Shown: positions 6,901-25,657, counted from the first letter of the stretch. The stretch: 32,000 nucleotides of DNA from Ferroglobus placidus DSM 10642 (GCF_000025505.1 NC_013849.1:51250-83249); one strand, 5' to 3'. The notes: a model not told the origin generated them from the letters alone. Numbers and translations are program-made.

Positions 6901-7080
6901 TCTTTATTTTAATCTCCCCGAAATTTGAAACTTTCACATCTGAAATTTTAAAAATGAAAAAGGAGTGTAGAACTGGGAATAAAAGTTCCTTGTAAATCTC
7001 AGATGACTGAGCATTTTGCTTAGAACTTTGGCTGTTTTCTAAGTCTGTAATGCTTTTTAAAATTACGAGTTTGACGAAGG

Positions 7081-8425: not shown

Positions 8426-8428
8426 AGT

Positions 8429-9307: not shown

Positions 9308-10311
9308 ACGAGCTGAGAAGGGAAAGAATAGATCGACCTATTAAAGCAAGGACAGATGACATATACGCTTTGATGAGCTATAGGGAGTTGAGCTACCTTT
9401 TACTTCCGAGAATTTTACCAGTAGCGATTCTTCTCCTACTCCCGCTGATAGTTCCCAACCTATACTACCTGAGAGTTCTCAACATAGCTTTATCTTTCGC
9501 GATCCTCGCGGCAAGCTGGGATTTCTTGGCAAATTACGTCGGATTGGTCTCTCTTGGTCACGCTCTCTTTTTCGGAATAGGCGCTTATACAGCCGGAGCT
9601 CTCTCAGCCTACTTCGACTTGCCTATCTTTGTCACGATACCCTTAGCAACTTTGGCTGGAGGTGCGATTTCAACAGCGCTAATCTACCCAACTTTGAAGG
9701 TTCGAGGAATATACTTCTCCCTTATAACCCTCGCGTTCCCCTTGCTTTTAGCCAGGTTAATAGAAGCTACGGACATCCTCGGCGGGACTCTCGGAATAAC
9801 CGACGTTGAAGGCTTTCCAAATCCGTGGATAGAAAGTTACCTACTAATCTTCTCGCTAATCGTCGTAGTTTTCGGATTGAGAAGGTTGCTTGGAGAAGAC
9901 CTCGGAATAGTCCTGAGGGCTATAAAGGACAACGACTTAACTGTGGAAGCTTCCGGAATCAACGTGAATAAGTACAGAGCTGTTGCGGTTTTCATCTCCT
10001 CAGCCATAGCATCTTTCGTTGGCGCTTACACAGCCCACTCCTACATGTTCGTCGGTTTGCCCTACCTCAATCTTGAGTACTCGATTTTCCCTATAGCAGC
10101 TACAGTCGTCGGAGGAATGAGCTCCATAGCCGGAGCTGCTATAGGAGCTTTCGTTCTCGTTCCGCTGAGCGAAATGCTGAGAGAATTCGGAACGTTGAGA
10201 ATAGCGATATACTCCCTTCTGCTAATGCTCTTCATAGCTCTTCGTCCCGAGGGAATCTACATGTTCCTCTGGAGGAAATATCACCAGATCGAGAGGTGGG
10301 TGAAAGCTTGA
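9304..10311 (+). CDS. livM: ABC transporter permease, LivM/BraE family
   Basis: 335-aa polytopic protein with GLVSLGHALFFGIGAYTAG and LRAIKDNDLTVEASGINV, typical of LivM. Confidence 0.85.
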   Translation: MNELRRERIDRPIKARTDDIYALMSYRELSYLLLPRILPVAILLLLPLIVPNLYYLRVLNIALSFAILAASWDFLANYVGLVSLGHALFFGIGAYTAGALSAYFDLPIFVTIPLATLAGGAISTALIYPTLKVRGIYFSLITLAFPLLLARLIEATDILGGTLGITDVEGFPNPWIESYLLIFSLIVVVFGLRRLLGEDLGIVLRAIKDNDLTVEASGINVNKYRAVAVFISSAIASFVGAYTAHSYMFVGLPYLNLEYSIFPIAATVVGGMSSIAGAAIGAFVLVPLSEMLREFGTLRIAIYSLLLMLFIALRPEGIYMFLWRKYHQIERWVKA

Positions 10312-11048
10312 TAAGAGTTGAAAATCTGACGAAGAGGTTCGGAGGAGTCGTTGCGGCAAACAACATAAGCTTTGAGGTGAAAAAGGGAGAGGTTCTCGGA
10401 ATTATAGGACCTAACGGGAGCGGAAAAACTACTGTGGTGAATCTCATAACCGGATTCATAAAGCCAGACTCTGGGAAAGTGTTTTTTGCCGGAAAAGATA
10501 TAACTTCAAAACCTCCCCACGAAATAGCTAACCTCGGCGTTGTTAGGACTTTTCAAAACGTCAGACCTTTCTACAACTTGCCAGCTTACAAGAATCTCAT
10601 AATTCCTCTTTACTCCCCAAGGGCTAAAAGCTTCGAAGAGTTCAAACATGGGGATAGAGACCACATAGCTTTGGATCTTCTTGAAGAGGTCGGATTCGAA
10701 AGAGATTCTCCGATTCCGTACAAACCAGCCTCAGCTCTACCTCACGGATACATAAAAAGGCTTGAGCTTGCGAGGGCTTTGGCTTTAAAGCCAGAAGTTT
10801 TGATTTGCGACGAACTTTTCAGCGGTTTGAGTCAGGCTGAAATAGCGAGCTTGCTGCCGATACTTGAAAAGCTAAACGAGAACGGTTTGACGCTTATAAT
10901 GGTAGAGCACAGACTCAAAGAGCTTTTCGAGTTAGCTGACAAAGTTGTGGTTTTGGAGTACGGGGAAAAGATAGCCGAAGGAAAGCCGGAGGAAATCGTT
11001 GAGGACGAGAAGGTTAAGGAGGCTTTTCTCGGTGCGGAGGTGATTTAA
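10296..11048 (+). CDS. livG: ABC transporter ATP-binding protein, LivG/BraF family
   Basis: Walker A is GPNGSGKTT, the signature-like segment is LPHGYIKRLELARAL, and Walker B is LICDE. The start is GTG 10296 or TTG 10308 (TTGA overlap with the livM stop). Confidence 0.9.
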   Translation: MGESLIRVENLTKRFGGVVAANNISFEVKKGEVLGIIGPNGSGKTTVVNLITGFIKPDSGKVFFAGKDITSKPPHEIANLGVVRTFQNVRPFYNLPAYKNLIIPLYSPRAKSFEEFKHGDRDHIALDLLEEVGFERDSPIPYKPASALPHGYIKRLELARALALKPEVLICDELFSGLSQAEIASLLPILEKLNENGLTLIMVEHRLKELFELADKVVVLEYGEKIAEGKPEEIVEDEKVKEAFLGAEVI

Positions 11049-11794
11049 TGCTTAAAACGAATGAGCTCACGGTGTTCTACGAAAACGCAATAGCCGTTAA
11101 CAACGTTGACATTGAGGTTGAGGAGGGAGAGATCGTCGGGTTATTCGGACCTAACGGAGCCGGAAAATCGACGCTGATGTACACGATTTCCGGGATAATA
11201 CTTGATAAGAAAAAGAAGGAGGAGATGAGGGGTGGAGAGAGAATAACGATTCTCGGAAGGATAGAGTACGAAAAAAAAGATATAACTTTTCTCAAGCCGA
11301 ATAAGAGAGCGGAAATGGGCATAATTCTCTGTCCGGAGAGAAGAAGGGTTTTTCCGGAAAGCAGCGTTGTTGAGAACTTGAAAATCGGAGGTTACCTTAG
11401 AAGCTGGAGGGAGGTGAAAGAAGATATAGAAAAGATGTTCGAGATATTTCCGGAGCTTGAAAAGCATAAAAACAAGCCTGCAGGCTTTTTAAGCGGAGGA
11501 GAACAGCAGATGCTTGCGATAGCGAGAGCTTTAATGGCGAAACCCAAGCTGTTACTTTTGGACGAACCCCTGCTCGGACTGGCTCCTCTCGTTCAAAAAA
11601 GGATAGTCGAAGTCGTAAAAAGAATAAGGGATGAGCTTGGAGTTACCGTCCTCGTGGCTGAGCAGTACGCGAGACCCGTCTTTCCGATAATCGACAGAGG
11701 TTACATCATCGAGCGGGGAACTATCTCCTTCTCCGGCACTTCCGAGGAGTTGATGAGTAACCCGAACGTTAAAGCAGCATATTTGGGGGTGTGA
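11048..11794 (+). CDS. livF: ABC transporter ATP-binding protein, LivF/BraG family
   Basis: Walker A is GPNGAGKST, the signature is LSGGEQQMLAIARAL, and Walker B is LLLDEP. It carries a Lys/Glu-rich insertion (LDKKKKEEMRGGERITILG) after Walker A. Confidence 0.9.
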   Translation: MLKTNELTVFYENAIAVNNVDIEVEEGEIVGLFGPNGAGKSTLMYTISGIILDKKKKEEMRGGERITILGRIEYEKKDITFLKPNKRAEMGIILCPERRRVFPESSVVENLKIGGYLRSWREVKEDIEKMFEIFPELEKHKNKPAGFLSGGEQQMLAIARALMAKPKLLLLDEPLLGLAPLVQKRIVEVVKRIRDELGVTVLVAEQYARPVFPIIDRGYIIERGTISFSGTSEELMSNPNVKAAYLGV

Positions 11795-11798
11795 GAGC

Positions 11799-13442
11799 AT
11801 GCTGAAAGATAATCTTCACGATAAAGTGCTGGAGATGACCGAGAAAGAAAAGACTGTTTTAACGAAAATTTACGAGATGAGCGAAAAGTATCCGGATCAA
11901 ACGGCGCTAATTTTCTTGGGAGAAAAGTACAACTACAAAAAGCTAATCAAACTAATAGAAAGCTTTTCTTCTGGAATTTCCGAGCTCGGAGTTAAAAAAG
12001 GAGATAGAGTAATGCTTTATCTTCCCAACTCCCCTCAGTTTCTCATCTCCTACTTCGGATTGATGAGGATAGGAGCTATTCCGGTGCCCGTCTCTCCCAT
12101 CTACACGAGTAACGAAATAAGGTACATGCTCGAAAACAGCGGAGCTAAAGTCGTTATCTGCAGCGATACGAACATAGGGTACGTTAGAGCCGTTGAAGAA
12201 GTTGGAGTTGAGAAAATCGTCGTTACGAACGTAGCTGATATGCTGCCAAAGTGGAAGAAAATTGTTGGAGAGCTTTTCGACAAAATTCCGAAGGGCAGCT
12301 ACGAAAAATCCGAGAAAGTATTTGAGTTCAAAAAACTGCTTAAAAAAGGAGAAAGCGTTGAAGAAGCAGAAATTGATCCGAAGAAGGATATAGCGCACAT
12401 TCTGTACACCGGCGGAACAACCGGAAGACCAAAAGGTGTCGTTCACACACACGCTTTTCTGCTAAGCGGAATAATCGGGTTGAGGGAGACTTACAAAGAA
12501 ATAAAAGAGCTTGAAAACAAGTTCGTCGTCGTCGTTCCCCTCTTCCACATGTTCGCATTGGACATGATAATGTCCACGACTCTCCACAAAGCCAACACCG
12601 CAATTTTGATGCCCAAGCCAAACATCGATGCAATCCTGGCGAGCATCGAGTACTACGAAGCTACTCTTTTTGCCGGAGTTCCGACTCTCTACAGGATGAT
12701 TCTCGAACACGATAGAGTCGACTATTACGACCTCTCCTCTCTCAAATTCTGCTGGAGCGCCGGAGACGTTCTTCCGGCTGAGGTTTACAAAATGTGGAAG
12801 GAGAAATTCGGAATTCCCCTCCACCAAGTTTACGGATCAACGGAAACCGTCGTCATTGCTGTAACGAGACTTTCTGAGGAGCCGAAGCTTGGTAGCGTTG
12901 GAAAGATAGTTCCGGGGAGAATCGCTAAGATTATCGATCCGGAAACGCTTGAGGAGGTTGAAGGGGAGGGGGAGTTGATCGTAACATCCGAATACCTCAC
13001 CATGGGTTATTGGAGAAACCCGGAAGAGACGGAGAAGGGATTCATAGAGAGCGGAGGTTATCTGTGGTGCAGAACCGGAGATTTCGTGAAAATTTACGAA
13101 GATAAGCTATATTTCGTCGATAGAAGGAAGGACATCATCAAGTACAAAGGGTACAGAATTGCGGCAAGTGAAGTTGAAGCTGTTTTGCAATCCCATCCGG
13201 CTGTTATTGCTGCAAGCGTTATTGGTGTACCAGACGAGAGAGTTGGAGAAAGAATTAAGGCTTTCGTGGTGTTGAAGGAGGACGCGAGAATTACAGCTCA
13301 TGATTTGAAGAGATGGTGCAGGGAAAGATTGGCACCTTACAAAGTTCCGGACTACATCGAGTTCAGGGACTTTCTTCCGAAGTCAAAAGTTGGAAAGATT
13401 TTGAGGAGAGAATTAAGAGATCAGGAACTCAGGAGGGGATGA
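11799..13442 (+). CDS. Acyl-CoA synthetase (AMP-forming), FadD-like medium/long-chain class
   Basis: 547 aa. The AMP-binding signature is YTGGTTGRPKGVVHTH, with YGSTE, the hinge TGDFV...DRRKDIIKYKGYRI, and a terminal PKSKVGKILRREL. It starts 4 nt after the livF stop, so it is the last gene of the transporter operon. Confidence 0.85.
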   Translation: MLKDNLHDKVLEMTEKEKTVLTKIYEMSEKYPDQTALIFLGEKYNYKKLIKLIESFSSGISELGVKKGDRVMLYLPNSPQFLISYFGLMRIGAIPVPVSPIYTSNEIRYMLENSGAKVVICSDTNIGYVRAVEEVGVEKIVVTNVADMLPKWKKIVGELFDKIPKGSYEKSEKVFEFKKLLKKGESVEEAEIDPKKDIAHILYTGGTTGRPKGVVHTHAFLLSGIIGLRETYKEIKELENKFVVVVPLFHMFALDMIMSTTLHKANTAILMPKPNIDAILASIEYYEATLFAGVPTLYRMILEHDRVDYYDLSSLKFCWSAGDVLPAEVYKMWKEKFGIPLHQVYGSTETVVIAVTRLSEEPKLGSVGKIVPGRIAKIIDPETLEEVEGEGELIVTSEYLTMGYWRNPEETEKGFIESGGYLWCRTGDFVKIYEDKLYFVDRRKDIIKYKGYRIAASEVEAVLQSHPAVIAASVIGVPDERVGERIKAFVVLKEDARITAHDLKRWCRERLAPYKVPDYIEFRDFLPKSKVGKILRRELRDQELRRG

Positions 13443-13922
13443 CTCAAAAATTTCGGGGGAGAAGCGGAACTTGTAAATGTCGTAGACGAACATTAGGTTG
13501 AGCTCGTCCACAAATTCCCCGTGCCTGTCTAAGAACTCGTGAATCCACATGGTAACCTCTTTAAAGCTTCTGAAAGCTGCTAACACCTTCCATCTTCTCA
13601 CCCCTCCAGTTACGGCGAACATAACAACGTGAGCTGAACCTATTAAATATTCATACGCTTTCTTCCATTTTTTGAAGTGGTGGTTGTTGAAGCTCATCTC
13701 GATAAAAGCGAAAATTAAGTTGTTCTCGTTTGGAATTATTACTTCCCTTATCGCACCGCTCTTTTTTAGTTCTTGCAAAATTCTCGCAACTCTCGTCAGA
13801 CTTATTTGTATTCCGTACTCTTTCAGCAAAATTTCTCTGAGCTCCTTGACGGTGACGTTCGGATTTTTCACCTTTTCTTTGATTATGATCGTCTTAACTT
13901 TATCCAGCTTCATACCTTTCAC
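13413..13922 (-). CDS. Lrp/AsnC-type transcriptional regulator (wHTH + RAM-like C-terminal domain)
   Basis: 169 aa. The N-terminal HTH is VTVKELREILLKEYGIQISLTRVARILQELKKSGAIRE. The C-terminal half has a beta-alpha-beta-like pattern (IFAFIEMSF...VLAAFRSFKEV). It overlaps the acyl-CoA synthetase stop by 30 nt (convergent). Confidence 0.65.
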   Translation of the reverse strand: MKGMKLDKVKTIIIKEKVKNPNVTVKELREILLKEYGIQISLTRVARILQELKKSGAIREVIIPNENNLIFAFIEMSFNNHHFKKWKKAYEYLIGSAHVVMFAVTGGVRRWKVLAAFRSFKEVTMWIHEFLDRHGEFVDELNLMFVYDIYKFRFSPEIFESSPPEFLIS

Positions 13923-13973: not shown

Positions 13974-15044
13974 TCATTTCGGAATCTTGAAAGGAGTTAA
14001 AGCTCGTTCCATGAGCAAATCGAAACCGCTCTTTTTGCCAATGACTGGCTCCTTCTTCTTTTGACTCCACACCGTCTCTGGACGAGCTTGAAGAATGAAA
14101 ACGTTCTTTGGGAAGTCGAAGTCTTTATCTATTGCCCACTCTATGTCCATTGGATGAGAGTAATGTTCCTCAATCTTCTTCCCTATCTCCGCCAAGTAAA
14201 CAATTTCCTCATCGCTCAAGGACGGCTTTTCCCTCAAATCCTCAGGAACTTCTTCGTGAACAACTTTCCCATCCTTGTAAACGCACCACACGAGTTTTGG
14301 AGAGATCGTTCTGTCCAATATTTCCTTCGTAACTTTATCTACGACGAACCTGTCTGGAGTTACCTCTCCACTTACAATAGCCTCTCCAAGCCCCCAAGCA
14401 GATTCGATAACGATCTGACTCTCATCTCCGTTTGTCGGATTGAGAGTGAACATAACTCCGCTGCTCCTCGAATTTACCATCTTCTGAACTACGACGGCGA
14501 TGGAAACCTCATAATGATCAAAACCTTTCGTCGCTCTGTAGGCTATCGCTCTCGGAGTGTAGAGACTGCTCCAGCACTTTAAAACGTGCTTCACTACTTC
14601 ATCCTCTCCTTTAATCCAGAGATAAGTTTCCTGCTGTCCGGCGAAACTTGCGTCGGGCACATCCTCTGCTGTTGCTGAGCTTCTTACAGCCACAGCCACT
14701 TCTTCGCCGACGATTTCGCACAGCTTTCTGTAAGCTTCTCTAATCTCTTCTTCGATTTTTTCCGGAATCGGAGTCGATTCCACAATCTCCCTCGCCAAAG
14801 CACTGACTTTTTCAAGCTCTTCCGTATTCTTTACGTCAACCTCGGATATTATCCTCGCTATCTGCGCTTTCTTCCCCCTCTCTTTCGCCCCTTCTAAGAA
14901 TTCCTCAAAAGCGTTTATTGTGATAACAAAGCCAGGTGGAATCGGAAAGCCAGCCTTTACCATCTCTCCTAAATTTGCCCCTTTTCCTCCTGCTATGCCA
15001 ACATCTTCTTTGCTTATTTCGTCAAACCACTTAACATACTTCAT
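13974..15044 (-). CDS. ATP-grasp nucleotide-binding subunit of a split PEP-synthase-like dikinase (PpsB-like)
   Basis: 356 aa. Residues FDEISKEDVGIAGGKGANLGEMVKAGFPIPPGFVIT, RSSATAEDVPDASFAGQQETYL and MDIEWA match the PPDK_N / PEP synthase N-terminal domain only. There is no His-swivel or TIM-barrel domain. A GGTGGT RBS precedes the ATG. Confidence 0.75.
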   Translation of the reverse strand: MKYVKWFDEISKEDVGIAGGKGANLGEMVKAGFPIPPGFVITINAFEEFLEGAKERGKKAQIARIISEVDVKNTEELEKVSALAREIVESTPIPEKIEEEIREAYRKLCEIVGEEVAVAVRSSATAEDVPDASFAGQQETYLWIKGEDEVVKHVLKCWSSLYTPRAIAYRATKGFDHYEVSIAVVVQKMVNSRSSGVMFTLNPTNGDESQIVIESAWGLGEAIVSGEVTPDRFVVDKVTKEILDRTISPKLVWCVYKDGKVVHEEVPEDLREKPSLSDEEIVYLAEIGKKIEEHYSHPMDIEWAIDKDFDFPKNVFILQARPETVWSQKKKEPVIGKKSGFDLLMERALTPFKIPK

Positions 15045-15094
15045 AGAGTACCACCTTCAACAATAGTCAATTATATATCGTTATATTTAAAACC

Positions 15095-15114
15095 TTGTCA
15101 AGTCTTAGCATTGA
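15095..15114. promoter_or_regulatory. Dyad motif copy A (TTGTCAA-N8-ATTGA) upstream of the PpsB-like gene
   Basis: TTGTCAAGTCTTAGCATTGA lies 51-70 nt upstream of ATG 15044. An A/T box TTATATTTAAAA (15081..15092) flanks it on the gene-proximal side. Confidence 0.45.
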
Positions 15115-15143
15115 TTAAAAATAATGGTGTAAAAAAAGTGGAG

Positions 15144-17015
15144 CTATTCTTCGGCTCTCTTCACAATCGTTACTACTCCCTTATCTCCGTCCACCCTGAT
15201 TATATCTCCGGTTTTTATCACCTGCGTAGCTATTCCCGTTCCGGTAACTGCTGGAATTCCGTATTCCCTACAAACTATCGCAGCGTGACTCGTCAATCCT
15301 CCTATGTCGGTCACAGCAGCTTTTATTTTCGTGAAAACGGGAGCCCAGCTCGGATTAGTATTTGGACAGACGAGAATCTCTCCCTCCTGCACCTGATCTA
15401 TCTCATCCAAGAACCTTATAACTCTGGCTTTCCCTTCAACAACTCCAGATGAAGATGCAAATCCTTTTATTTCCGTGACTTCCTCCGGTCGGTAGGTAAC
15501 ACCTTTAATCCACTCGCTGACTTTCTCCGAAGTTATTCCCCAGAGCATCACGGTAAATGGTTCCGTTACCTCTTCAGGAACGGTTCCCAAAGCTGGCGGA
15601 GGAGTCCAGTTCCTCGCTGCTTCGAGAATCTTCTTTCTCTTTTGAGCTTTTCTCTTCCAGTATTCAGCTCTCGGCGGCACGTTTTCTCCCAGAGCCCAAG
15701 CGGTGACGAGATCTTCAATGATCATTGGAATTTCGAAGCGATTGAAGAGGAAGATGTCGTCCACTTCGTTTAGCATTCCGTACCTGACGAAAAGTTTTCC
15801 GAACTCTCTCATTTTCTCAAAAACTATCGTGTGGAACCAGTGCTCGACCCAGAAGAGGTGGTTTTCGGCGTAATCGTAAATGTCTCTGACAATCTTGTAC
15901 GCTTCGTCGAACGCTTTTCTATCTTCGTCGGTTTTGATTAGCTTTCTGTACTCCTCAACGAGCTTTTCTCTCGCTTTGTGGATCTCGTCGATGTCTCTCT
16001 CTATCGTCTCACCTTTTTCAAGCATCTCTATGTAGCTTTTTAAGTAGCTGAAGGGGACTTCAAGGGTGTTTATCCAGCTTCCCTCGTAGTGGAACCATCC
16101 GCTACCGCAGGAGACGTAGAACCACGGATCTTTCGCCTCGTCAAATGCTCTAAGCCACTCTCTCCCTTCAGGAAAAATCTTTAATTCCTCAATCTTCTCC
16201 TCCGGGCTTTTGTCCGATTTCAGTATTTCCACAACCCTACCTCCAAGGGAAATGGCGAGCCTCGCAAGTTTTGCAAGCTCTTCTTGCGGTCGAAACATCA
16301 CCACGTCAGCTCCGGCTACCATCTTACCTATCGTGGACTCGCTTATTCCGGGGAAAAGCTTTCTGACAACGTCAGCAAAAGTCAGATAAGCCAAGTAGCT
16401 CAGATTTAGGTACTGGAAGTGGTACTGCCAAGCTTTGAATATCGCATCTATCAGCTTGTCGTAGGCTTCCATCAAGTCGTAGGAGGAATAGTACCCTCTT
16501 GGCTCCGGAATTACCCTTTCCTCTGGCTCAAAGGTTGGCAAATCAGGAACTTCTATGTTCTTAACGTACTCTCCGAGCTCTCTGAACTTCTTTTCCCACT
16601 TTTCATACAACTTCTCGCTCTTGTAATTCTGAAAAACCCAGAAAGCTCTTTTTTGAAACAGCTCGGCTTTCTTCTTAATCGTTTCCTCGCTTGGAGGCTC
16701 TACTGCGCAGATGTAGAAGTAGCAACCGAGAATTCTCTGGGCAACTCCCTGCGCTGGAGGAATGCAGAAGACCCTCGTGTTGTACTGAGATAAAGCGATC
16801 TGCCAAGCTTCGTGGAAGATCAAGTCGAAGGGATACATTGGATCTGGCGCGTGTATTTTGTCGAGGTACCAGAACTGCCTTTCTTCCCACTCTTTTCTCT
16901 CTTCGCTGAATATGTAGTGGGGTGGATACATCTCTTCCCATCCTTCAAGCTCCTTTGGAACTTCCACTTCCAGCGGTTTAGGAAATCCGTTTCCCAAAAC
17001 TACCACCTCACCCAA
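15144..17015 (-). CDS. Phosphohistidine-swivel subunit of a split PEP-synthase-like dikinase with a large unique N-terminal domain (PpsA-like)
   Basis: 623 aa with a TTG start (alternative GTG 9 nt downstream). The C-terminal ~90 aa is a PEP-utilising mobile domain (ILVCPNTNPSWAPVF...DIGGLTSHAAIVCREYGIPAVTG, His577). The N-terminal ~500 aa has no ATP-grasp and no PEP/pyruvate-binding barrel motifs that I recognise. Confidence 0.7.
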   Translation of the reverse strand: MGEVVVLGNGFPKPLEVEVPKELEGWEEMYPPHYIFSEERKEWEERQFWYLDKIHAPDPMYPFDLIFHEAWQIALSQYNTRVFCIPPAQGVAQRILGCYFYICAVEPPSEETIKKKAELFQKRAFWVFQNYKSEKLYEKWEKKFRELGEYVKNIEVPDLPTFEPEERVIPEPRGYYSSYDLMEAYDKLIDAIFKAWQYHFQYLNLSYLAYLTFADVVRKLFPGISESTIGKMVAGADVVMFRPQEELAKLARLAISLGGRVVEILKSDKSPEEKIEELKIFPEGREWLRAFDEAKDPWFYVSCGSGWFHYEGSWINTLEVPFSYLKSYIEMLEKGETIERDIDEIHKAREKLVEEYRKLIKTDEDRKAFDEAYKIVRDIYDYAENHLFWVEHWFHTIVFEKMREFGKLFVRYGMLNEVDDIFLFNRFEIPMIIEDLVTAWALGENVPPRAEYWKRKAQKRKKILEAARNWTPPPALGTVPEEVTEPFTVMLWGITSEKVSEWIKGVTYRPEEVTEIKGFASSSGVVEGKARVIRFLDEIDQVQEGEILVCPNTNPSWAPVFTKIKAAVTDIGGLTSHAAIVCREYGIPAVTGTGIATQVIKTGDIIRVDGDKGVVTIVKRAEE

Positions 17016-17054
17016 AAGTTTTCAAACAATAAATAATTAGAAATATTTAGCTCT

Positions 17055-17074
17055 TTGTCAACAATTGTCATTGA
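17055..17074. promoter_or_regulatory. Dyad motif copy B (TTGTCAA-N8-ATTGA) upstream of the PpsA-like gene
   Basis: TTGTCAACAATTGTCATTGA lies 40-59 nt upstream of start 17015, with an adjacent A/T box AAATATTTAG (17041..17050). The 25-mer 17053..17077 is 21/25 identical to 17175..17199. Confidence 0.45.
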
Positions 17075-17176
17075 AAAGTTTAAAAGCTAAGTGCTAATTC
17101 GAATTGATCGAATTTTTCTTTGGCAGCGGGTTAATTCACAAGCAGAGTCTTGGTGTGCTCGGAAACGTAAATAACT

Positions 17177-17196
17177 TTGTCAACACCTGACGTTGA
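17177..17196. promoter_or_regulatory. Dyad motif copy C (TTGTCAA-N8-GTTGA) in the PpsA-like/Nudix divergent intergenic region
   Basis: TTGTCAACACCTGACGTTGA lies 37-56 nt upstream of the Nudix ATG 17233, with an adjacent A/T box GTAAATAAC (17166..17174). Confidence 0.45.
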
Positions 17197-17232
17197 AAAA
17201 TCTTCTTATTGCTTCGCTCTTTTAAATTCTCC

Positions 17233-17652
17233 ATGAAGTTTGAGGTGATCGTCAGAGGCATTGTTAAGGATGGAGACAAAGTTCTCATCGGATTGAAGAG
17301 AAGGGACGATCCTCACCCGCTACAAGGTGAGTGGCACTTCCCCGGGGGAAGGTTGGAGTACGAAGAGAATCCTTGGGAGGCTGTTGAAAGGGAGATCGAG
17401 GAAGAGACCGGGTATAAAGTAAAGGCGGAGAGGATTATCGACGTCATTCCTAAAAAGCTCATCTGGCCGAACGAAATTGGAGAGCAGCAAACGCTACACG
17501 TAGTCTTTTCTTGCAAACTACTCGGAGGGAAAGCAAAAGCGGGAGACGATGTTGAAGAGGTCAAGTGGATTTCTGTGGAGGAGATAGACCGCTACTTGAA
17601 AAAAGAGTTTCTGCTGGAATCGAGTTTAGTTAGGGAGTTCATCGAATCTTGA
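17233..17652 (+). CDS. Nudix hydrolase (MutT family)
   Basis: The Nudix box GGRLEYEENPWEAVEREIEEETG matches GX5EX7REUXEEXGU. I prefer ATG 17233 (MKFEVIVRG...) over the TTG 17209 used in the ORF track. The 3' end overlaps the TrmB-like gene by 27 nt (convergent). Confidence 0.85.
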   Translation: MKFEVIVRGIVKDGDKVLIGLKRRDDPHPLQGEWHFPGGRLEYEENPWEAVEREIEEETGYKVKAERIIDVIPKKLIWPNEIGEQQTLHVVFSCKLLGGKAKAGDDVEEVKWISVEEIDRYLKKEFLLESSLVREFIES

Positions 17653-18402
17653 TAGGATTAGATCTCTTATCGCCCTCGATATGTCTCTGTTCTTCAAAAC
17701 TACGGCTTCGTCGTACCACCTTCTCTCTTTTAAGCTACCTTCCGAAGGCATTATTATCGCCTCTTCGCAGTCTCTAACGTACATCCTCGCGGAGGATTTG
17801 AATTCCGAGCAGATGGCTACTTTGCTCAAAGTCTCTACTATATCCTTCGGAAGCTCGCTGAGGGGGGCGAGCAGATATATTTTCACACCCCTTTCACTTG
17901 CTTCGAATATCTCGGGCTTGTACTCGTAAACTATCCTAATAGATTCGTTGCTTGTGGCAGCGATGGCGAGCTCTTCGTCGCTTCTGTTTATAAACTCCTT
18001 AATCGTGCTTATCAACACCCTCCTCCCCGTCACTTCGTAGGAAATCGTGTTCGATACGTTTCCCCTTACACCTATTGACCTTACAATGTTAAGAAATTCC
18101 TCTCTCAATTTGAACAAATTATACAGTCTCTTCTCAACATCTCTTATGAGCATCGAAGTAGCCACTTCCGGAGACACAGCGTAGTACCTTCTCGGCTTCT
18201 GCGCGGAAACGTAGATTAACCCTTTTTCACTCAAATTTTCCAGGATGTCGTAGATTCTCTGTCTGGTCAATCCAACTTCCTTGGCTAACTCGCTGACTGA
18301 AGCCCCGGACTTCTTCAGTAGGAGCAGGTATATTTCAGCCTCCGTCTTACTCAAACCCAGATCTTCCAGAATGTTTGTCAACCGTGACTTATATTCCTGC
18401 AT
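17626..18402 (-). CDS. TrmB-family transcriptional regulator
   Basis: 258 aa. The N-terminal wHTH is LGLSKTEAEIYLLLLKKSGASVSELAKEVGLTRQRIYDILENLSEKGLI, followed by a coiled-coil arm and a C-terminal effector-type domain, typical of TrmB-like proteins. Confidence 0.8.
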   Translation of the reverse strand: MQEYKSRLTNILEDLGLSKTEAEIYLLLLKKSGASVSELAKEVGLTRQRIYDILENLSEKGLIYVSAQKPRRYYAVSPEVATSMLIRDVEKRLYNLFKLREEFLNIVRSIGVRGNVSNTISYEVTGRRVLISTIKEFINRSDEELAIAATSNESIRIVYEYKPEIFEASERGVKIYLLAPLSELPKDIVETLSKVAICSEFKSSARMYVRDCEEAIIMPSEGSLKERRWYDEAVVLKNRDISRAIRDLILSRFDELPN

Positions 18403-18560
18403 TACAATGTATTGAAATTCAAAGCATTACTTAAACCTTTCCACCAGCCTCCATTTAAATTAAATGTTGGTTATGGAAACTTCCAAGCTAAATCTGTAAA
18501 ATTGAAAATTTGACACAATTTTATCTACATTAAACATTACGGTAGTTTTTAGGTGGTAGG

Positions 18561-20090
18561 ATGGGGGAGTTTATAGAAAAAAAGGACTACTTCGGAGTGA
18601 GGTTTCCGATACCGAGAGATCTGAGAGCTTTCATTGAAATACTTGAGAAGGAGGGAGAGTTGAAGAGAATAAAAGCGGAGGTCGATTGGAATCTCGAATT
18701 GTCGCACATAGCAAAGCTGAATGAAGAAAGAAGCGGTCCGGCTTTACTCTTCGAGAACATAAAGGACTACAAGCCGGGAGAGAAGAGGGGAAGCAAAGTA
18801 TTCACTTCAGCTTTCACAACTCCGAAAAGGGTTGCGATAGCTTTGGGAATGGACAGAAGCGCTGGGGTTGTTGACATAGCGAGAGAATGGATGACGAGAG
18901 TTACGAAGGGAGGAAAGATTCCTCCGAAGAAAGTTAGCGATGGACCAGTTATGGAGAACGTAGTTGAGGGGGACAAAATTAATTTGCTCGATTTTCCAGT
19001 GCCGCAGGTTTATCCTCAGGACGGTGGCAGATACTTCGGCACGGCAGTTTACTTATTAACTAAAGATCCAGAGAAGGGGAAGGAGTGGGTAAATCTCGGC
19101 ACATACAGAATGATGGTCCTCGACGAGAAGAGCTTGGGTGTTCAGATTCTCAAGGGAAAGGATGCCGACGTGATGATGCAAAAGTACAGGGAAATGGGAG
19201 AAAAGGAGATGCCAGCAGCAGCAGTTATCGGAGGAACCCCTCTCGGCTTCCTAACTGGAAGCACCCTCGTCGAATACGGGACGAGCGAGTACGAGATAAT
19301 CGGTGCTTTGCAAGGTGAGCCAGTAGAAGTTATCGAGAGCGATTTGACCGGTTTGCCTATAGATGCGAGGGCAGAAATTGTCGCGGAGGGATTCATTCCG
19401 GTTGACGAAAAAGAGTGGAGACCCGAGGGACCTTTCGGAGAGTACACTGGCTACTACTCAGGAAAAGCTAAAGAGGAATTTCCAAAGCCTTGGATTAGAG
19501 TGGAGAGGATAATGCATAGAAACGATCCGATATTCTGGGTGACAACTGTCGGAAGACCGGTTACTGACACGCACATGATTCAGTCTATAAACAGAACAGC
19601 CGAGCTATGGACTCAGCTCGAACAGATGGGAGTTCCGGGAATACAGTCCGTCTACATACCTCCAGAAAGCGGTGGAAGATTCTGGGCGATAATTTCTATA
19701 AAGCAGATGTATCCGGGACACGGAAGGCATGCAGGATTGGCAGCTTTCGCCACAGTCGTCGGAAACTACGGAATGAAGGGAGTCATTGTTGTAGATGACG
19801 ACATAAGAGCTGATGATTTGCCGAGAGTCTGGTGGGCTTTGTCGGTGAGGTACAACCCGGTCGAAGACACCGAGATTATAAAGAAGGGTAGGTCAACGCC
19901 TTTAGATCCCTCACTGCCGATATACAAGGACTGGTACGACAGAAGGTTGCTGGTTTCGAGAATCCTCATAGATGCAACGACTCCCTACGAATGGGAGAGG
20001 AAGCCGCAGGTTATAGAGCTCGACAAAGAAACTGTGGAAAAGCTGAAGCAGAGGTGGGACGAGTTCGGCTTCGACTGGAAGCCGGAGTAA
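18561..20090 (+). CDS. ubiD: UbiD-family prFMN-dependent (de)carboxylase
   Basis: 509 aa. UbiD-family hallmarks are NLGTYRMMV, EGPFGEYTGYYS and RFWAIISIKQ. An AGGTGGT RBS precedes it. It is the first gene of a 4-gene operon that ends with UbiX. Confidence 0.85.
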   Translation: MGEFIEKKDYFGVRFPIPRDLRAFIEILEKEGELKRIKAEVDWNLELSHIAKLNEERSGPALLFENIKDYKPGEKRGSKVFTSAFTTPKRVAIALGMDRSAGVVDIAREWMTRVTKGGKIPPKKVSDGPVMENVVEGDKINLLDFPVPQVYPQDGGRYFGTAVYLLTKDPEKGKEWVNLGTYRMMVLDEKSLGVQILKGKDADVMMQKYREMGEKEMPAAAVIGGTPLGFLTGSTLVEYGTSEYEIIGALQGEPVEVIESDLTGLPIDARAEIVAEGFIPVDEKEWRPEGPFGEYTGYYSGKAKEEFPKPWIRVERIMHRNDPIFWVTTVGRPVTDTHMIQSINRTAELWTQLEQMGVPGIQSVYIPPESGGRFWAIISIKQMYPGHGRHAGLAAFATVVGNYGMKGVIVVDDDIRADDLPRVWWALSVRYNPVEDTEIIKKGRSTPLDPSLPIYKDWYDRRLLVSRILIDATTPYEWERKPQVIELDKETVEKLKQRWDEFGFDWKPE

Positions 20091-20113
20091 ATTTCTAATT
20101 TTTTATTTTCGAG

Positions 20114-20821
20114 GTGGTAAATTTGGTTAAGTGGATCGGCTTCGATTACGGACAATGCTTGATGGACTCTTCGAACAGAAAAGTCGAGTACTGGATGGCA
20201 GCAGTTTTCATAGACGAAGAAAAGGAAAGACCGGGGATAATAAACGAGAAGGTGAAGCTTTACAACGAGCTGATAGAGAAGTACGGAGATTTTAGAAGGT
20301 TGCACGAAAAGGGGAGGCACGAGGTTGAGGAGAAAGTTCTCGAGAACAATCCGTGTTTGATAAAGAGGTATTACGAAGTGGAACAAAAGCTTCTAAAACC
20401 AGCGGATGGAGCTGAAGACGCTCTGAGGTATCTGAAAAAGAAGGGCTACGTTCTCGACGTAGTTTCTGATATGAGCACGGTGAACGTGATAATCAATTTC
20501 CTAAACAACTACAACCTCCGCCACTTCTTCTCCAACATCTACTCCCCTATTGGTGTTGTTAGAGAGAGCGGAGAAATCGACGAGAGCTTTAAAGGAGTTT
20601 CAAAGGAAGACGGAAGCCTTTACGAGAAGTTGAAGGAAGACCTCGAGAGGAGAGGAATTGACGTTTCCGAGGCTGTAATGGTTGGAGATCATCCGGTGAA
20701 GGATGTTGAAATGGCAAAGAAGTACGGATTCATAACCGTCCACTACGACGTGAAAGGAAAACCTTCGGACAAAGCGGATTACGTAATAAGCCACTTCTCG
20801 GAGCTTAAAAAGATATTTTAA
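20114..20821 (+). CDS. HAD-superfamily hydrolase-fold protein with a non-canonical motif I
   Basis: Motif I is WIGFDYGQCL (the nucleophile Asp is present; the Asp+2 position is Gly). Motif II is LDVVSDMS and motif IV is VMVGDHPVKDVEMA. The likely start is TTG 20123, 5 nt after the GAGGTGG RBS, rather than GTG 20114. Confidence 0.65.
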   Translation: MVNLVKWIGFDYGQCLMDSSNRKVEYWMAAVFIDEEKERPGIINEKVKLYNELIEKYGDFRRLHEKGRHEVEEKVLENNPCLIKRYYEVEQKLLKPADGAEDALRYLKKKGYVLDVVSDMSTVNVIINFLNNYNLRHFFSNIYSPIGVVRESGEIDESFKGVSKEDGSLYEKLKEDLERRGIDVSEAVMVGDHPVKDVEMAKKYGFITVHYDVKGKPSDKADYVISHFSELKKIF

Positions 20822-20830
20822 GGGGTCGAT

Positions 20831-22405
20831 ATGCCCATTTCCGGAGAAAAGTTCGAATTTAACGTTCCGGAAAGAATGAATTTAGCGGAGATCGTTGTTG
20901 ACAGGCAAGCTGAAAGGTTTCCAGAAAAAACGGCAATTGTTTGCGTTGGAAGCGAAAAAATGGGAATAAAAGAGGAGAAGGTAACATTTAAAGAGTTGAA
21001 AGATTTGACGAATAAAGCTGCGAACGCTTTTATTAATGAAGGAATGAGCTTTGACGACAGAGTTCTAATAGTTTTGCCCGACTCCATAGACTTCTACATC
21101 GCCTTTTACGGAGCTATAAAGCTCGGAGCCGTGCCAGTGCCTGTAAACACGTATCTTTTCGAGGAGGATTACGCTTACTTCTTGGAAGATTCCCGGGCTA
21201 AATTTGCGGTAATTTACAGCGGTTTCGAAAAAGCTTTGAAAGCAGCTGAAAATTCGAAGTATCTCAAAGAAGTTTTTACTGAAAAAGATTTGAGGGAACT
21301 TACGAATAAAGCATCTTCGGAATTCGAACCTTTAAAGCTCAGCAAGGATTCGATGGCTTTCTGGCTTTACAGTTCCGGAACGACCGGAAAGCCGAAGGGA
21401 GTTGTTCATCTCCACCACGATCCGATCTTCGTTTGCGAAAGCTATCACAGAAGAGTTCTCGGACTGAGCAGCGAAGACGTGTGCTACTCCGTTAGCAAGC
21501 TCTTCTTCGCCTACGGACTCGGAAGCTGCGGATACGGTAGTTTATACTTCGGGGCAACAGTGGTGGTTGATCCGGAAAGACCCGATCCGGAGAGAGCTGC
21601 AGAAATACTCGAAAAATACGGAGTTACAGCTTTGTTTACCGTCCCATCTTTCTACGCGAGGCTCGTAGAAATTGATAGGGATGTGAAGCATAAGTTAAGA
21701 ATCGCTGTGAGCGGAGGAGAGCCTTTGCCGGAAGCTGTATGGTACAAGTTCAAAGAGAAGTTCGGAGTTGAGATAGTTGAGCATATAGGATCAACCGAGG
21801 CTTTGTACGCTTTCATCGGTCACTATCCGGGGAAAGTCAAGCCCGGATACACCGGAGTCGTAATGCCCGGGTGGGAGGTTAAGCTTGTCGACGAGAACGG
21901 AAACGAAATAGTCGAGGACGGGATTCCCGGCAAACTTTTGATTAAGGGTGACTCGGTGGCTGCTTTTTACTGGGAAAAGCACGAAAAGACGAAAAAAGCC
22001 TTTCTCGGAGAGTGGTACGACACTGGCGACACCTTCGTTAAAGAGGGCGAATACTTCAAGTACCACGGAAGGGCAGACGACTTGATAAAAACGAGAGGGC
22101 TTTGGGTTTCTCCGGTTAAAGTTGAGAACGCTTTATTAAAGCATCCGGCGATAGAAGAATGCGCAGTTGTGCAGGGATTTAACGAGAAAAAACTCGAGGT
22201 CGTTGCGGCTTACGTTGTTCTAAGGAAAGGATACGACGAAAGCGTTGTGGATGATGTAAAAAGATTTTTGAGGGAGCAGGGGCTGAAAGGCTTCGAAATC
22301 CCTGAGAAATGGGTTTTTGTCAGAGAACTTCCGAGAACCGCTACTGGAAAAATTCAAAAATACAAGTTGAGGATGAAAGAGTTTGAGGAGGCGTTTGGGA
22401 AATGA
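20831..22405 (+). CDS. Aryl-CoA ligase, benzoate/4-hydroxybenzoate-CoA ligase family
   Basis: 524 aa. AFWLYSSGTTGKPKGVVHLHHD matches the FWLYSSGSTGxPKG signature I associate with benzoate-CoA ligases. It also has YDTGDTF...GRADDLIK and a C-terminal PRTATGKIQKYKLR. Confidence 0.75.
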   Translation: MPISGEKFEFNVPERMNLAEIVVDRQAERFPEKTAIVCVGSEKMGIKEEKVTFKELKDLTNKAANAFINEGMSFDDRVLIVLPDSIDFYIAFYGAIKLGAVPVPVNTYLFEEDYAYFLEDSRAKFAVIYSGFEKALKAAENSKYLKEVFTEKDLRELTNKASSEFEPLKLSKDSMAFWLYSSGTTGKPKGVVHLHHDPIFVCESYHRRVLGLSSEDVCYSVSKLFFAYGLGSCGYGSLYFGATVVVDPERPDPERAAEILEKYGVTALFTVPSFYARLVEIDRDVKHKLRIAVSGGEPLPEAVWYKFKEKFGVEIVEHIGSTEALYAFIGHYPGKVKPGYTGVVMPGWEVKLVDENGNEIVEDGIPGKLLIKGDSVAAFYWEKHEKTKKAFLGEWYDTGDTFVKEGEYFKYHGRADDLIKTRGLWVSPVKVENALLKHPAIEECAVVQGFNEKKLEVVAAYVVLRKGYDESVVDDVKRFLREQGLKGFEIPEKWVFVRELPRTATGKIQKYKLRMKEFEEAFGK

Positions 22406-22989
22406 GGATCGTCGTAGCTCTAACGGGAGCTTCCGGACAGATTTACGGAATAAGGCTTCTCGAATACTTAAGTAAAACGGATATCGAGACGCATCTTGTT
22501 ATCTCTCCGGCTGCCAAAGAAAATATAGAGATAGAGACGGAATACAGCGTAGAATACGTTGAGAGCTTGGCGGATTTCTGCTACGACTACATGGACTTCA
22601 CGGCTCCAATAGCAAGCGGAAGTTTCAAGCACGACGGGATGATCGTGATCCCCTGCTCGATCAAAACAGCTTCGGCGATAGCAAACAGCCTCAACTACAA
22701 CCTGATAATCAGAGCAGCAGACGTGACTTTGAAGGAGAGGAGAAAGCTCGTTCTCGTCGTTAGAGAGACTCCGCTTCATTCCGGTCACTTGAGGATGCTC
22801 GCCAAGCTTTCGGATCTCGGAGCGATAGTATACCCGCCAGTTCCAGCGTTTTACTCCAAACCGAAGAGCTTGGACGACATCGTAAATCACACGGTGGGAA
22901 GAGCCCTCGATCTTCTCGGAGTTGAGAACAACCTCTACAAACCTTGGATGGGCAGGGAGAGTATATCGGAGAAGGAGTTCAATTTGTAA
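22402..22989 (+). CDS. ubiX: UbiX flavin prenyltransferase (prFMN synthase)
   Basis: 195 aa. MRIVVALTGASGQIYGIRLLEYL, MIVIPCSIKTASAIANS and LVVRETPLH are typical UbiX/Pad1 motifs. Its ATG overlaps the ligase stop (ATGA). Confidence 0.9.
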   Translation: MRIVVALTGASGQIYGIRLLEYLSKTDIETHLVISPAAKENIEIETEYSVEYVESLADFCYDYMDFTAPIASGSFKHDGMIVIPCSIKTASAIANSLNYNLIIRAADVTLKERRKLVLVVRETPLHSGHLRMLAKLSDLGAIVYPPVPAFYSKPKSLDDIVNHTVGRALDLLGVENNLYKPWMGRESISEKEFNL

Positions 22990-25588: not shown

Positions 25589-25657
25589 ATGAAGTTAAGG
25601 ATTAATAATTTATAAAGGTTTGTAAAGTAAATTTTTGGAAAATCGGAAGGTGTCGAC

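Follow-up and report, generated by a model that had tools for sequence, protein, structure and literature searches.

Are the dyads repeated in the promoter regions of two dikinase-like genes of Ferroglobus placidus operators, and, if so, which protein reads them? F. placidus is a model hyperthermophile for the anaerobic oxidation of aromatic compounds, and our literature searches found no regulator or cis-element described for archaeal anaerobic aromatic pathways. We analyzed a stretch of 32,000 nucleotides from strain DSM 10642 (NC_013849.1:51250-83249), called the window below. Coordinates are positions in the window unless the genome is named.

The genes next to the dyads are predicted to form a cluster for anaerobic phenol degradation, with a phenylphosphate synthase split into PpsA and PpsB, a UbiD-type carboxylase subunit and an aryl-CoA ligase:

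13974-15044, minus strand: ppsB-like gene, PPDK_N ATP-binding subunit
15144-16997, minus strand: ppsA-like gene, PEP-utilizers mobile domain
17233-17652, plus strand: Nudix hydrolase gene
17626-18402, minus strand: TrmB-family regulator, 258 aa, TrmBL2-like architecture, the proposed reader of the dyad
18561-22989, plus strand: operon for UbiD (phenylphosphate carboxylase beta-like), HAD, benzoate-CoA-ligase-family and UbiX proteins

The PPDK_N and PEP-utilizers domains are on separate genes. The ppsA-like gene matched NF006153 with a score of 1078 (cut-off 578), and the matches to TIGR02724 (phenyl_P_beta; 559 bits, cut-off 469) and TIGR02262 (441, cut-off 375) were likewise above their cut-offs. 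The start of ppsA is probably the TTG at 16997, as alignments with homologues begin at residue 8-9 of the longest open reading frame.

The initial annotation had described three copies of TTGTCAA-N8-RTTGA in the same orientation. We found all three where it had placed them, on the plus strand and with no mismatches (15095-15114, 17055-17074 and 17177-17196). As it had reported, the two copies near 17 kb are identical at 21 of 25 positions, the arms pair at 8 of 9 positions in the best copy, and A/T-rich boxes adjoin all copies (TTATATTTAAAA at 15081-15092, AAATATTTAG at 17041-17050 and GTAAATAAC at 17167-17175). The distances it gave between motif and gene start for ppsB and ppsA also hold. 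The motif is 51-73 nt from the ppsB ATG (15044), and it is 58-80 nt from the homologue-supported start of ppsA; measured from the longest-ORF start at 17015, the latter distance is 40-62 nt.

We found that the motif is better described as a 23-bp dyad, TTGTCAA-N9-TTGAAAA on the plus strand, with half-site centers 16 bp apart. Read toward ppsA and ppsB, its consensus is TTTTCAA-N9-TTGACAA. The sites are:

15095-17199, no strand: span of the three reported copies
15095-15117, minus strand: putative ppsB operator, TAATCAA-N9-TTGACAA, then GG and TATA box TTTTAAATATAA (15081-15092)
17055-17077, minus strand: putative ppsA operator, TTTTCAA-N9-TTGACAA, then AGAGC and TATA box TAAATATT (approximately 17041-17050)
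17177-17199, no strand: second copy in the divergent region between ppsA and the Nudix gene, 33 nt upstream of the Nudix ATG (17233), with its TTGAAAA half toward Nudix and its TTGACAA half toward ppsA

The geometry of these promoters is constant: dyad, 2-5 nt, TATA box, with the TTGACAA half always proximal to the predicted TATA box. TATA boxes and transcription starts are predictions throughout. Because TTGACAA(A) ends 2-5 nt from the TATA box, the dyad should abut or overlap the BRE, assuming standard archaeal promoter geometry. At ppsA, ppsB and ubiD, in several genomes, the dyad is in this same place, 2-5 nt upstream of the predicted TATA box, which is the position expected of a TrmB-family operator.

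Three copies of a short motif could arise by chance in A/T-rich intergenic DNA, and the loose matches are what chance would give. With up to two mismatches there were 38 dyad matches in the genome (G000) compared to 44-99 for control patterns; that is, the dyad was no rarer than the controls. With up to one mismatch, most Archaeoglobi genomes had one to five matches, like the reversed control, and the remaining matches of this kind that we inspected in Geoglobus MAGs were intragenic or beside no recognizable gene. The signal is therefore in the exact and near-exact matches, their clustering and their positional conservation, and with two-mismatch matches at background the extent of any wider regulon is uncertain.

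The exact and near-exact matches argue against chance. The strict pattern TTGTCAA-N8-RTTGA occurs five times in the whole genome (2,196,266 bp), and three of the five are here, within 2.1 kb. With up to one mismatch allowed, the window contains five matches versus 0.36 expected, a count reached by none of 100 dinucleotide shuffles of the window. Across the genome, also with up to one mismatch, there were four distinct dyad sites, all intergenic, whereas spacing and order controls gave 0-2 intergenic sites. In a scan of the genome with a position weight matrix, the sites in the window scored 25-31.5 bits (the ppsA operator was the top score of the genome, at 31.5 bits, and the copy at 17177-17199 scored 29.5 bits) and the next best match, inside a gene, scored 19.2 bits. 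The training set of the matrix included the three window copies besides orthologous sites, so their top rank is partly built in and the informative part is the ceiling of 19.2 bits elsewhere. A similar frequency throughout the genome, which the initial annotation had named as one outcome that would speak against its reading, was not what we found: by strict count, weight matrix and controls, the motif is unevenly distributed.

That reading had also been made to depend on conservation in related genomes. We aligned orthologous promoters and found that the dyad is kept in other genera: its half-sites do not vary, whereas its spacer does. It is present upstream of ppsA, at the equivalent promoter position, in eight of eight genomes from Ferroglobus, Geoglobus and two further lineages (G000, G036, G041-G044, G053 and G093), with eight different or partly different spacers. 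In the alignment of these eight promoters (A1), the only contiguous invariant blocks were TTTCAA and TTGACAAA. The dyad is upstream of ppsB in six genomes, and the TTGACAA block was invariant in an alignment of five ppsB promoters (A3). The Ferroglobus MAG G036 has the copy at 17177-17199 as well, there with an altered spacer.

A weaker form of the dyad precedes the ubiD operon, where the ubiD ATG is at 18561:

18494-18516, plus strand: putative weak operator of the ubiD operon, CTGTAAA-N9-TTGACAC, then AA and TATA box TTTTATCT (18519-18526)

In an alignment of six ubiD promoters (A4), T.AA...TTGACA and the TATA box were invariant. The Geoglobus ubiD promoter has TTTTAAA-N9-TTGACAT, and there are full dyads in the ubiD promoters of the genome G092 and the metagenome contig L064. 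Invariant half-sites around a freely varying N9 spacer are, at the level of sequence, a clean phylogenetic footprint. With the dyad conserved in position in at least four genus-level lineages while its spacer varies, a chance origin is effectively refuted already, and we give it almost no weight.

It is also conceivable that TTGACAA(A) is a specialized core-promoter element (for example a BRE variant for an alternative TFB) and that TTTTCAA is incidental A/T-rich sequence. The location of TTGACAA, 2-5 nt from the TATA box, is that of a BRE. In addition, about eight other promoters, which are functionally unrelated, have TTGACAA and then a TATA-like box (at -57 to -69), so the proximal half could partly be promoter (BRE-like) sequence. 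Three results speak against this account of the whole dyad. The distal TTTCAA lies 9 nt farther upstream, beyond the range of a BRE, and alignment A1 shows no more variation in it than in the proximal block, with a variable spacer in between. Together the blocks make an inverted repeat, and the match at genome position 783322 is a perfect palindrome. Lastly, TTGACAA is present in just 14 of 964 promoter regions, ranking 57 among 420 7-mers of the same composition. We consider a core-promoter element quite improbable.

If the dyad is an operator, two proteins encoded nearby could read it. The initial annotation had suggested a local regulator, either Lrp-type or TrmB-type. We found support for a local regulator, and the TrmB-like protein is favored by synteny, by its absence where the cluster is absent and by covariation of its recognition helix with the motif; the Lrp-like ORF lies elsewhere in Geoglobus.

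The TrmB-like protein has a TrmB-type winged helix (PF01978, 73.5 bits versus a cut-off of 25.6, residues 12-79). Its recognition helix, LTRQRIYDILE, includes Tyr51-Asp52, the counterparts of Y50 and D51 of Pyrococcus furiosus TrmB, which contact DNA (PMC4158304). In the orthologues the Tyr is invariant and is followed by D or N. An AlphaFold model (pLDDT 87.4) contains a long helix at 78-109 and an alpha/beta domain at 121-250. The best Foldseek matches were to TrmBL2 (5bqt/5bpd, E ~2e-15), TrmB (3qph, 3e-11) and the TrmB sugar-binding domain (2f5t, 4e-7). The modeled fold, a winged helix-turn-helix, a coiled-coil helix and a PLD-like effector domain, is that of the TrmB family. It is not that of the sugar-sensing TrmB/TrmBL1 equivalogs: the protein has 258 rather than about 340 residues, and all NCBIfam scores were below their cut-offs (NF047390, 50 versus 650; NF040851, 32 versus 600; NF041141 for TrmBL2, 24 versus 530).

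In all clusters examined, the gene for the TrmB-like protein is located between ppsA and ubiD. Orthologues with at least 50% identity were found only in genomes with the pps cluster and are absent where the cluster is absent. A search for the regulator in contigs of GTDB genomes and in JGI metagenomes yielded no lineages beyond Ferroglobus, Geoglobus and g13. All orthologues share the helix LTRQR(V/I)Y(D/N)ILE, and so does one paralogue in G092 with AAGTCAA-N9-TTGACAA and a TATA box in its divergent ubiD-like promoter. For three of the five paralogues with other helices, inspection of the flanks by eye showed no dyad. Likewise, no dyad was seen by eye in the promoters of the paralogous clusters of G092 (ppsA paralogues 1 and 2), G043 (C97) and G056. 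The recognition helix thus appears to track the motif across paralogues.

The spacing of the dyad fits the TrmB family less simply. The spacers of TrmB-family motifs listed in a review are N3, N5 and N7-8 (PMC4158304), and the half-site spacing of 16 bp exceeds these, so the geometry of a simple TrmB-like dimer may not fit. The dyad consensus matches none of the known TrmB-family motifs TACT-N3-AGTA, TATCAC-N5-GTGATA and TACT-N7-8-GAGTA (PMC4158304).

The other candidate is:

13413-13922, minus strand: divergent Lrp/AsnC-like ORF, 169 aa

It has an N-terminal HTH and a C-terminal alpha/beta domain, matched no Pfam family at E<0.001 and had a weak full-length phmmer match to the Lrp-type protein PH0061/2dbb (E=0.0064). 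The dyad could be a real operator read by this protein. The ORF is directly downstream of ppsB in G000 and G053, cluster-bearing Geoglobus and g13 genomes have orthologues with 51-55% identity, and an orthologue co-occurs with most cluster-bearing genomes. In Geoglobus, however, the orthologue is on other contigs, beside a molybdopterin oxidoreductase gene and with no dyad nearby. G093 has the dyads, yet its Lrp-like relative is only 44% identical, and a paralogue (~47% identity) is widespread in genomes that have neither cluster nor dyad. Lrp-type sites are usually palindromes of 13-17 bp, shorter than the 23-bp dyad. We regard the Lrp-like protein as an unlikely reader.

An unlinked regulator might also read the dyad, with the TrmB-like protein binding some other sequence in the cluster, for example the palindrome CATTTAAATTAAATG (18452-18466), which is conserved in the trmB-ubiD spacer. 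The TrmB wHTH profile has 34 matches in the genome, which also encodes many further wHTH proteins. Good dyad matches occur at two promoters far from the cluster: the one at genome position 783322 precedes a 2-oxoacid:ferredoxin oxidoreductase operon (at 783451), and the one at 1011965 precedes an ABC operon (at 1012006). Set against these are the strict synteny and co-occurrence of the trmB-like gene with dyad-bearing promoters in all lineages examined and the covariation of helix and motif across paralogues. In addition, the remote palindrome is missing from G037, which belongs to the same genus and has no copy of the regulator. An unlinked reader is in our estimate as doubtful as the Lrp-like protein.

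Based on these results we infer that the dyads are probably operators of one cluster-specific transcription factor, most likely the TrmB-like protein, that controls the anaerobic phenol pathway. The regulon would comprise the genes for the PpsA/PpsB phenylphosphate synthase, the UbiD/UbiX carboxylase operon and the Nudix gene. A LivK-type importer/CoA-ligase operon is probably a member as well, through this site:

7055-7077, plus strand: candidate operator of the LivK-type ABC importer/acyl-CoA ligase operon (7124-13442), TTTTAAA-N9-TTGACGA, then AGG and TATA box TTTATATA

The site has two mismatches and the geometry of the ppsB promoter. The evidence for it is clustering, since the ABC operons of other genomes are not orthologous.

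The TrmBL2-like protein (17626-18402) would bind through its winged helix, as a dimer or a dimer of dimers, and the signal (phenol, phenylphosphate or 4-hydroxybenzoate/-CoA) would be sensed by the C-terminal PLD-like domain and so alter occupancy. TrmB-family sites upstream of the BRE/TATA are activating (PMC4158304). Since the whole dyad is upstream of the TATA box, we favor ligand-dependent activation, through aid to the recruitment of TFB/TBP, and would put this at about an even chance. Repression by occlusion of the BRE, lifted by an inducer, ranks second and is a possibility of somewhat lesser weight.

The closest parallel is TrmBL1/Tgr with the Thermococcales glycolytic motif TATCAC-N5-GTGATA (P. 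furiosus and Thermococcus kodakarensis). There too a TrmB-family wHTH regulator acts on several operons of one pathway through an inverted-repeat operator at a fixed position relative to the BRE/TATA, and those of its sites that precede the BRE/TATA are associated with activation (PMC4158304). In contrast, the half-site here is TTGACAA with a spacer of N9 rather than N5, the regulator has 258 residues and no sugar-binding C-terminal subdomain (TrmBL1 equivalog score of 50 versus 650 bits), the pathway is anaerobic phenol catabolism rather than sugar metabolism, and the regulon is confined essentially to one gene cluster. TrmB of Thermococcus litoralis and P. furiosus, which acts at the trehalose/maltose malE promoter (TACT-N3-AGTA), is likewise encoded in its catabolic/uptake cluster. 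At malE it has a palindromic site at the BRE/TATA with occupancy controlled by the inducer (PMC4158304). The motif here differs, precedes the TATA box instead of overlying it, and would be read by a protein that lacks the sugar-binding domain and presumably has an aromatic effector.

TrmBL2 (TK0471/PF0496; PDB 5bpd, 5bqt), the nearest solved relative, is the best full-length match in sequence and fold (wHTH, long coiled-coil helix and PLD-like domain, ~260 aa). TrmBL2 is abundant and chromatin-like, and it binds DNA with little specificity, in coding as well as intergenic regions. The regulator here, in contrast, shares only about 21% identity with TrmBL2, occurs in cluster-bearing genomes alone and goes together with a specific dyad. 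In the bacteria Thauera and Aromatoleum, sigma-54-dependent or two-component regulators adjoin the pps/ppc genes. Those systems resemble this one in having a dedicated regulator beside the phenylphosphate synthase/carboxylase genes and substrate-dependent expression, but they use bacterial enhancer-binding proteins, and the protein here is an archaeal wHTH factor at a TATA/BRE promoter.

A regulator/operator pair of the TrmB-family kind is already known; the motif and the setting in aromatic catabolism are new. The hypothesis is specific: it singles out a protein of 258 aa, defines the critical bases of a 23-bp site and points to three to five target promoters. If true, it would add aromatic catabolism to the roles of the TrmB family, which have so far been mainly in sugar metabolism and chromatin, and offer a heat-stable candidate biosensor part that responds to phenol or hydroxybenzoate. 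More broadly, the TrmBL2-like subfamily in iron-reducing Archaeoglobi might represent recruited aromatic sensors, whose PLD-like domain detects phenol or an aryl-phosphate/aryl-carboxylate intermediate and which switch on the whole phenol regulon from a 23-bp dyad abutting the BRE. Paralogues with altered helices would then control paralogous dikinase/UbiD clusters for other aromatics. For aromatic catabolism in Archaea, no transcription factor/operator pair would have been defined before this one. We hold this wider proposal to be about as apt to be wrong as right.

Several other sequences resemble the dyad or half of it. Isolated TTGACAA half-sites were rejected as evidence for the regulon: they occur at 12 other promoters, with unrelated genes downstream. 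The half-site TTTGTCAAC in the first codons of the trmB-like gene, which had been placed at 18373-18381, is at 18374-18382. This 9-mer has 28 copies genome-wide. It encodes R-L-T-N of the TrmB-like protein and its DNA is not kept in Geoglobus, so the match is probably coincidental, and it is unsupported as a site. One further match is:

25620-25642, minus strand: doubtful weak match in the upstream region of a molybdopterin oxidoreductase gene, TTTTCCA-N9-TTTACAA, then ACC and TTTATAAAT

We found no counterpart of this match upstream of the orthologues in G053 or Geoglobus, and we rejected it.

The initial annotation had also raised the possibility that the Nudix gene is co-regulated with the dikinase genes. 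In G053 there is a single dyad between the divergent TATA-like boxes of the Nudix gene and ppsA, and co-regulation of the two is likely. The results as a whole suggest that the Nudix gene, and perhaps the LivK-type importer/CoA-ligase operon, is functionally part of the phenol pathway.

The window (bases 51250-83249 of a single 2,196,266-bp contig, 44% G+C) carries a gene cluster that, judging from the families it encodes, is a phosphorylate-carboxylate-thioesterify route of anaerobic phenol metabolism. Its UbiD protein scored 559 bits against TIGR02724 (phenylphosphate carboxylase beta; cut-off 469). The relevant features are:

7124-13442, plus strand: LivK-type ABC importer, the last gene encoding an acyl-CoA ligase
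13974-15044, minus strand: PpsB-like, PPDK_N protein (family profile)
15144-17015 (longest ORF), minus strand: PpsA-like, PEP-utilizers protein (NF006153, above cut-off)
17233-17652, plus strand: Nudix hydrolase (family profile)
17626-18402, minus strand: TrmB-family regulator (family profile)
18494-18516: ubiD-promoter version of the dyad, CTGTAAA-N9-TTGACAC
18561-22989, plus strand: operon for UbiD, a HAD protein, a benzoate-CoA-ligase-family enzyme and UbiX (profile matches)

Alignment of homologues favours 16997 (a TTG that follows GGTGAGGTGGT) over 17015, the TTG of the longest ORF, as the start of ppsA. The Nudix start codon is the ATG at 17233. A zinc-ribbon-like, Cys-rich N-terminal extension (MEECGVCGFRWEGEE...CPKCG) is present on UbiD orthologues of Geoglobus and of another Archaeoglobi lineage, G093 (starts at ~11215, ~11580 and ~5330 of loci L021, L022 and L024), and absent from Ferroglobus UbiD. 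At 4644-6525, an IS200/IS605-type TnpB (OrfB_IS605 plus a Cas12f1-like TNB domain) and a serine resolvase with a MerR-type HTH separate housekeeping genes from the ABC/phenol region.

The initial annotation reported three copies of TTGTCAA-N8-RTTGA near the dikinase genes. A sequence check and pattern scan found their coordinates exact, and the 21/25 identity, the 8/9 arm pairing and the flanking A/T boxes were all correct on re-checking. The genome scan that it proposed found the strict pattern five times in the whole genome, three of these within 2.1 kb here. With one mismatch or fewer, this pattern had 5 matches in the window versus 0.36 expected, and no shuffle reached 5. The unit is better written as a 23-bp dyad, TTGTCAA-N9-TTGAAAA on the plus strand, that is, TTTTCAA-N9-TTGACAA toward the minus-strand genes.

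Genome-wide, we found four distinct dyad sites with at most one mismatch, every one intergenic. Control patterns (halves reversed, swapped or re-spaced) had 2-6 matches at this threshold, 0-2 of them intergenic. At two mismatches or fewer there were 38 dyad matches, no more than for the controls (44-99); five of the nine distinct intergenic sites fell between 7 and 26 kb of the window. With a PWM trained on orthologous sites and the three window copies, these copies scored 25-31.5 bits and the next best genome site, within a gene, 19.2 bits, a ranking partly expected because the same copies helped build the matrix. Across 96 Archaeoglobi genomes, one-mismatch matches were common, much like those of the reversed control; among the matches listed, exact ones were almost confined to ppsA promoters. 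Thus, tight matches to the motif are specific, whereas loose ones are uninformative.

The decisive evidence for the dyad as a putative operator is its conservation. PpsA orthologues (82-98% identity) are found in nine other Archaeoglobi genomes, including one Ferroglobus MAG, four Geoglobus MAGs, two genomes of genus g13 and one from another family. Gene order is kept: ppsB and ppsA, then trmB, on one strand, with ubiD-HAD-ligase-ubiX diverging from trmB. Comparison of orthologous intergenic regions, also proposed earlier, revealed the dyad upstream of ppsA in 8 of 8 genomes with the region assembled, and its N9 spacer differs from lineage to lineage. In the alignment of these eight promoters (mean column identity 63%), the sole contiguous invariant blocks were TTTCAA and TTGACAAA; no column was invariant among the nine of the spacer or in the upstream flank. 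The ppsB promoter has the dyad, with TTGACAA invariant, in F. placidus, the Ferroglobus MAG, three Geoglobus MAGs (G041, G042, G044) and G093; none was found in the ppsA-ppsB gap (only 75 nt) of another lineage, G053. In 6 of 6 aligned ubiD promoters, TTGACA(A/C/T) lies 2-4 nt from the TATA box, and the distal half is degenerate, T(A/C)AA, at unchanged spacing. Full dyads occur at the ubiD promoters of a paralogous cluster in lineage G092 (AAGTCAA-N9-TTGACAA) and of a g13-like metagenome contig.

In genus g2 (G001-G009; e.g. G001:C1:2009507-2009529), at least seven genomes without the phenol cluster each have a single copy of a related sequence, TTTTCAAT(T/G)GTT(T/G)AACTTGGCAA, which may be a site conserved for a different regulator.

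There is a case for the TrmB-like protein as the predicted reader of the dyad, and a weaker one for the Lrp-like ORF (13413-13922). The TrmB-like gene alone among regulator genes is retained in the cluster across all lineages examined, and orthologues with at least 50% identity were found only in genomes carrying the pps cluster. The Lrp-like ORF adjoins ppsB in Ferroglobus and g13, but only there; its match to an Lrp-type structure is weak, and its Geoglobus orthologue is on other contigs, beside a molybdopterin oxidoreductase, with no dyad nearby. The TrmB-like protein has a TrmB wHTH domain (73.5 bits) and a Tyr-Asp pair equivalent to the DNA-contacting one of Pyrococcus TrmB (PMC4158304). 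Its predicted fold (pLDDT 87) comprises a wHTH, then a long dimerisation helix, then a PLD-like domain. TrmBL2 matches it along the whole protein, and TrmB is a further match; unlike TrmB, it lacks the sugar-binding subdomain. We compared recognition helices among 14 TrmB-like orthologues and paralogues. LTRQR(V/I)Y(D/N)ILE was present in 7 of 7 orthologues and in the single G092 paralogue adjoining a dyad-bearing promoter. Five paralogues carry other helices, and for three of these no such dyad was seen by eye in the flanking regions inspected.

In Geoglobus MAGs (L043:5380-8072, L044:3511-6196, L046:5069-7408), the Lrp-like orthologue directly adjoins the orthologue of the molybdopterin oxidoreductase at window 23543-25588, an adjacency that hints at linked functions.

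In every case the elements succeed one another toward the gene as distal half, N9, TTGACAA, 2-5 nt and TATA box, followed after about 35-45 nt by the Shine-Dalgarno sequence and start codon. In a standard archaeal promoter, TATA is centred near -26 with the BRE immediately upstream. With this geometry and the predicted transcription start, the proximal half would overlap the upstream BRE edge and the operator would be centred near -45. TrmB-family sites are palindromes at promoters, and those of TrmBL1/Tgr activate when upstream of BRE/TATA and repress when at or downstream of TATA (PMC4158304). Because the whole dyad is upstream of TATA at fixed orientation and distance, we lean toward a regulator that would activate from it in a ligand-dependent manner. 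A serious alternative, in view of strong-looking TATA boxes and a proximal half that touches the BRE, is repression, in which the regulator would block TFB until an inducer relieved the block, as for TrmB at malE. The half-site spacing (16 bp centre to centre) exceeds that of all described TrmB-family motifs and may reflect a different oligomeric arrangement.

Co-regulation of the Nudix gene with ppsA, raised in the initial annotation, is supported by promoter arrangement. In G053, where ppsA and the Nudix orthologue are divergent, two TATA-like boxes flank one dyad; the box on the Nudix side adjoins it directly (0 nt) and the one on the ppsA side is 5 nt away. The Ferroglobus region has two dyads, 122 bp apart, each adjoining one gene.

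The trmB-ubiD spacer contains a perfect palindrome, CATTTAAATTAAATG (18452-18466), with TTTAAATTAAATG in G093 and ATTTAAATG in G053 and no counterpart in Geoglobus; back-to-back TATA boxes or a further operator could account for it. At 18424-18437, ATTACTTAAA (TTTAAGTAAT toward trmB) is kept in 5 of 5 such spacers, about 25-35 nt from the trmB ATG. This element is probably the trmB TATA box, which would imply a leaderless or near-leaderless mRNA.

Further candidate sites may extend the regulon. A site before the ABC/ligase operon (7055-7077; TTTTAAA-N9-TTGACGA, AGG, TTTATATA) has the geometry of the ppsB promoter. At genome position 1011965-1011987 (L002:3966-3988), TTTTGAA-N9-TTGACAA, with one mismatch, abuts the TATA box AAATTTTTTAAAAA in the promoter of a second LivK-type ABC transporter operon, and is kept in the Ferroglobus MAG with one spacer change. 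The sole perfect palindrome elsewhere in the genome, TTGTCAA-N9-TTGACAA (783322-783344; L001:4323-4345), lies 3 nt past the stop codon of the upstream gene. The operon downstream of it, for a four-subunit 2-oxoacid:ferredoxin oxidoreductase, has its TATA box about 75 nt further on. In G037, of the same genus and without the regulator and cluster, a roughly 90-nt segment with this palindrome is missing. A match at 25620-25642 was rejected as weak and not conserved. Isolated TTGACAA half-sites at other promoters were rejected as evidence for the regulon, the genes behind them being unrelated. The half-site noted earlier in the trmB codons is probably coincidental, based on genome counts and orthologue comparison.

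Full-text literature searches turned up neither a report of the TTTTCAA-N9-TTGACAA motif nor, for Archaea, any described regulator or cis-element of the catabolism of phenol or other aromatic compounds. The putative pairing of a TrmB-family regulator with an operator is an already known type of system; what appears new is the motif, its spacing and its likely physiological target, and a TrmBL2-like architecture predicted to serve specific rather than general DNA binding.

TrmBL2-like paralogues (33-42% identity) repeatedly adjoin paralogous ppsA/ppsB-like dikinase and UbiD-like genes (neighbourhoods in L025 [G092:C3:6000-25999], L026 and L027), an arrangement suggesting that clusters for different aromatic substrates have their own specific regulators from one family. 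A 322-aa protein without a Pfam family (window 3529-4497) has an 83%-identical homologue in genome G056 (L027:2251-3216), flanked there by two TrmB-like paralogues and a ppsB paralogue.
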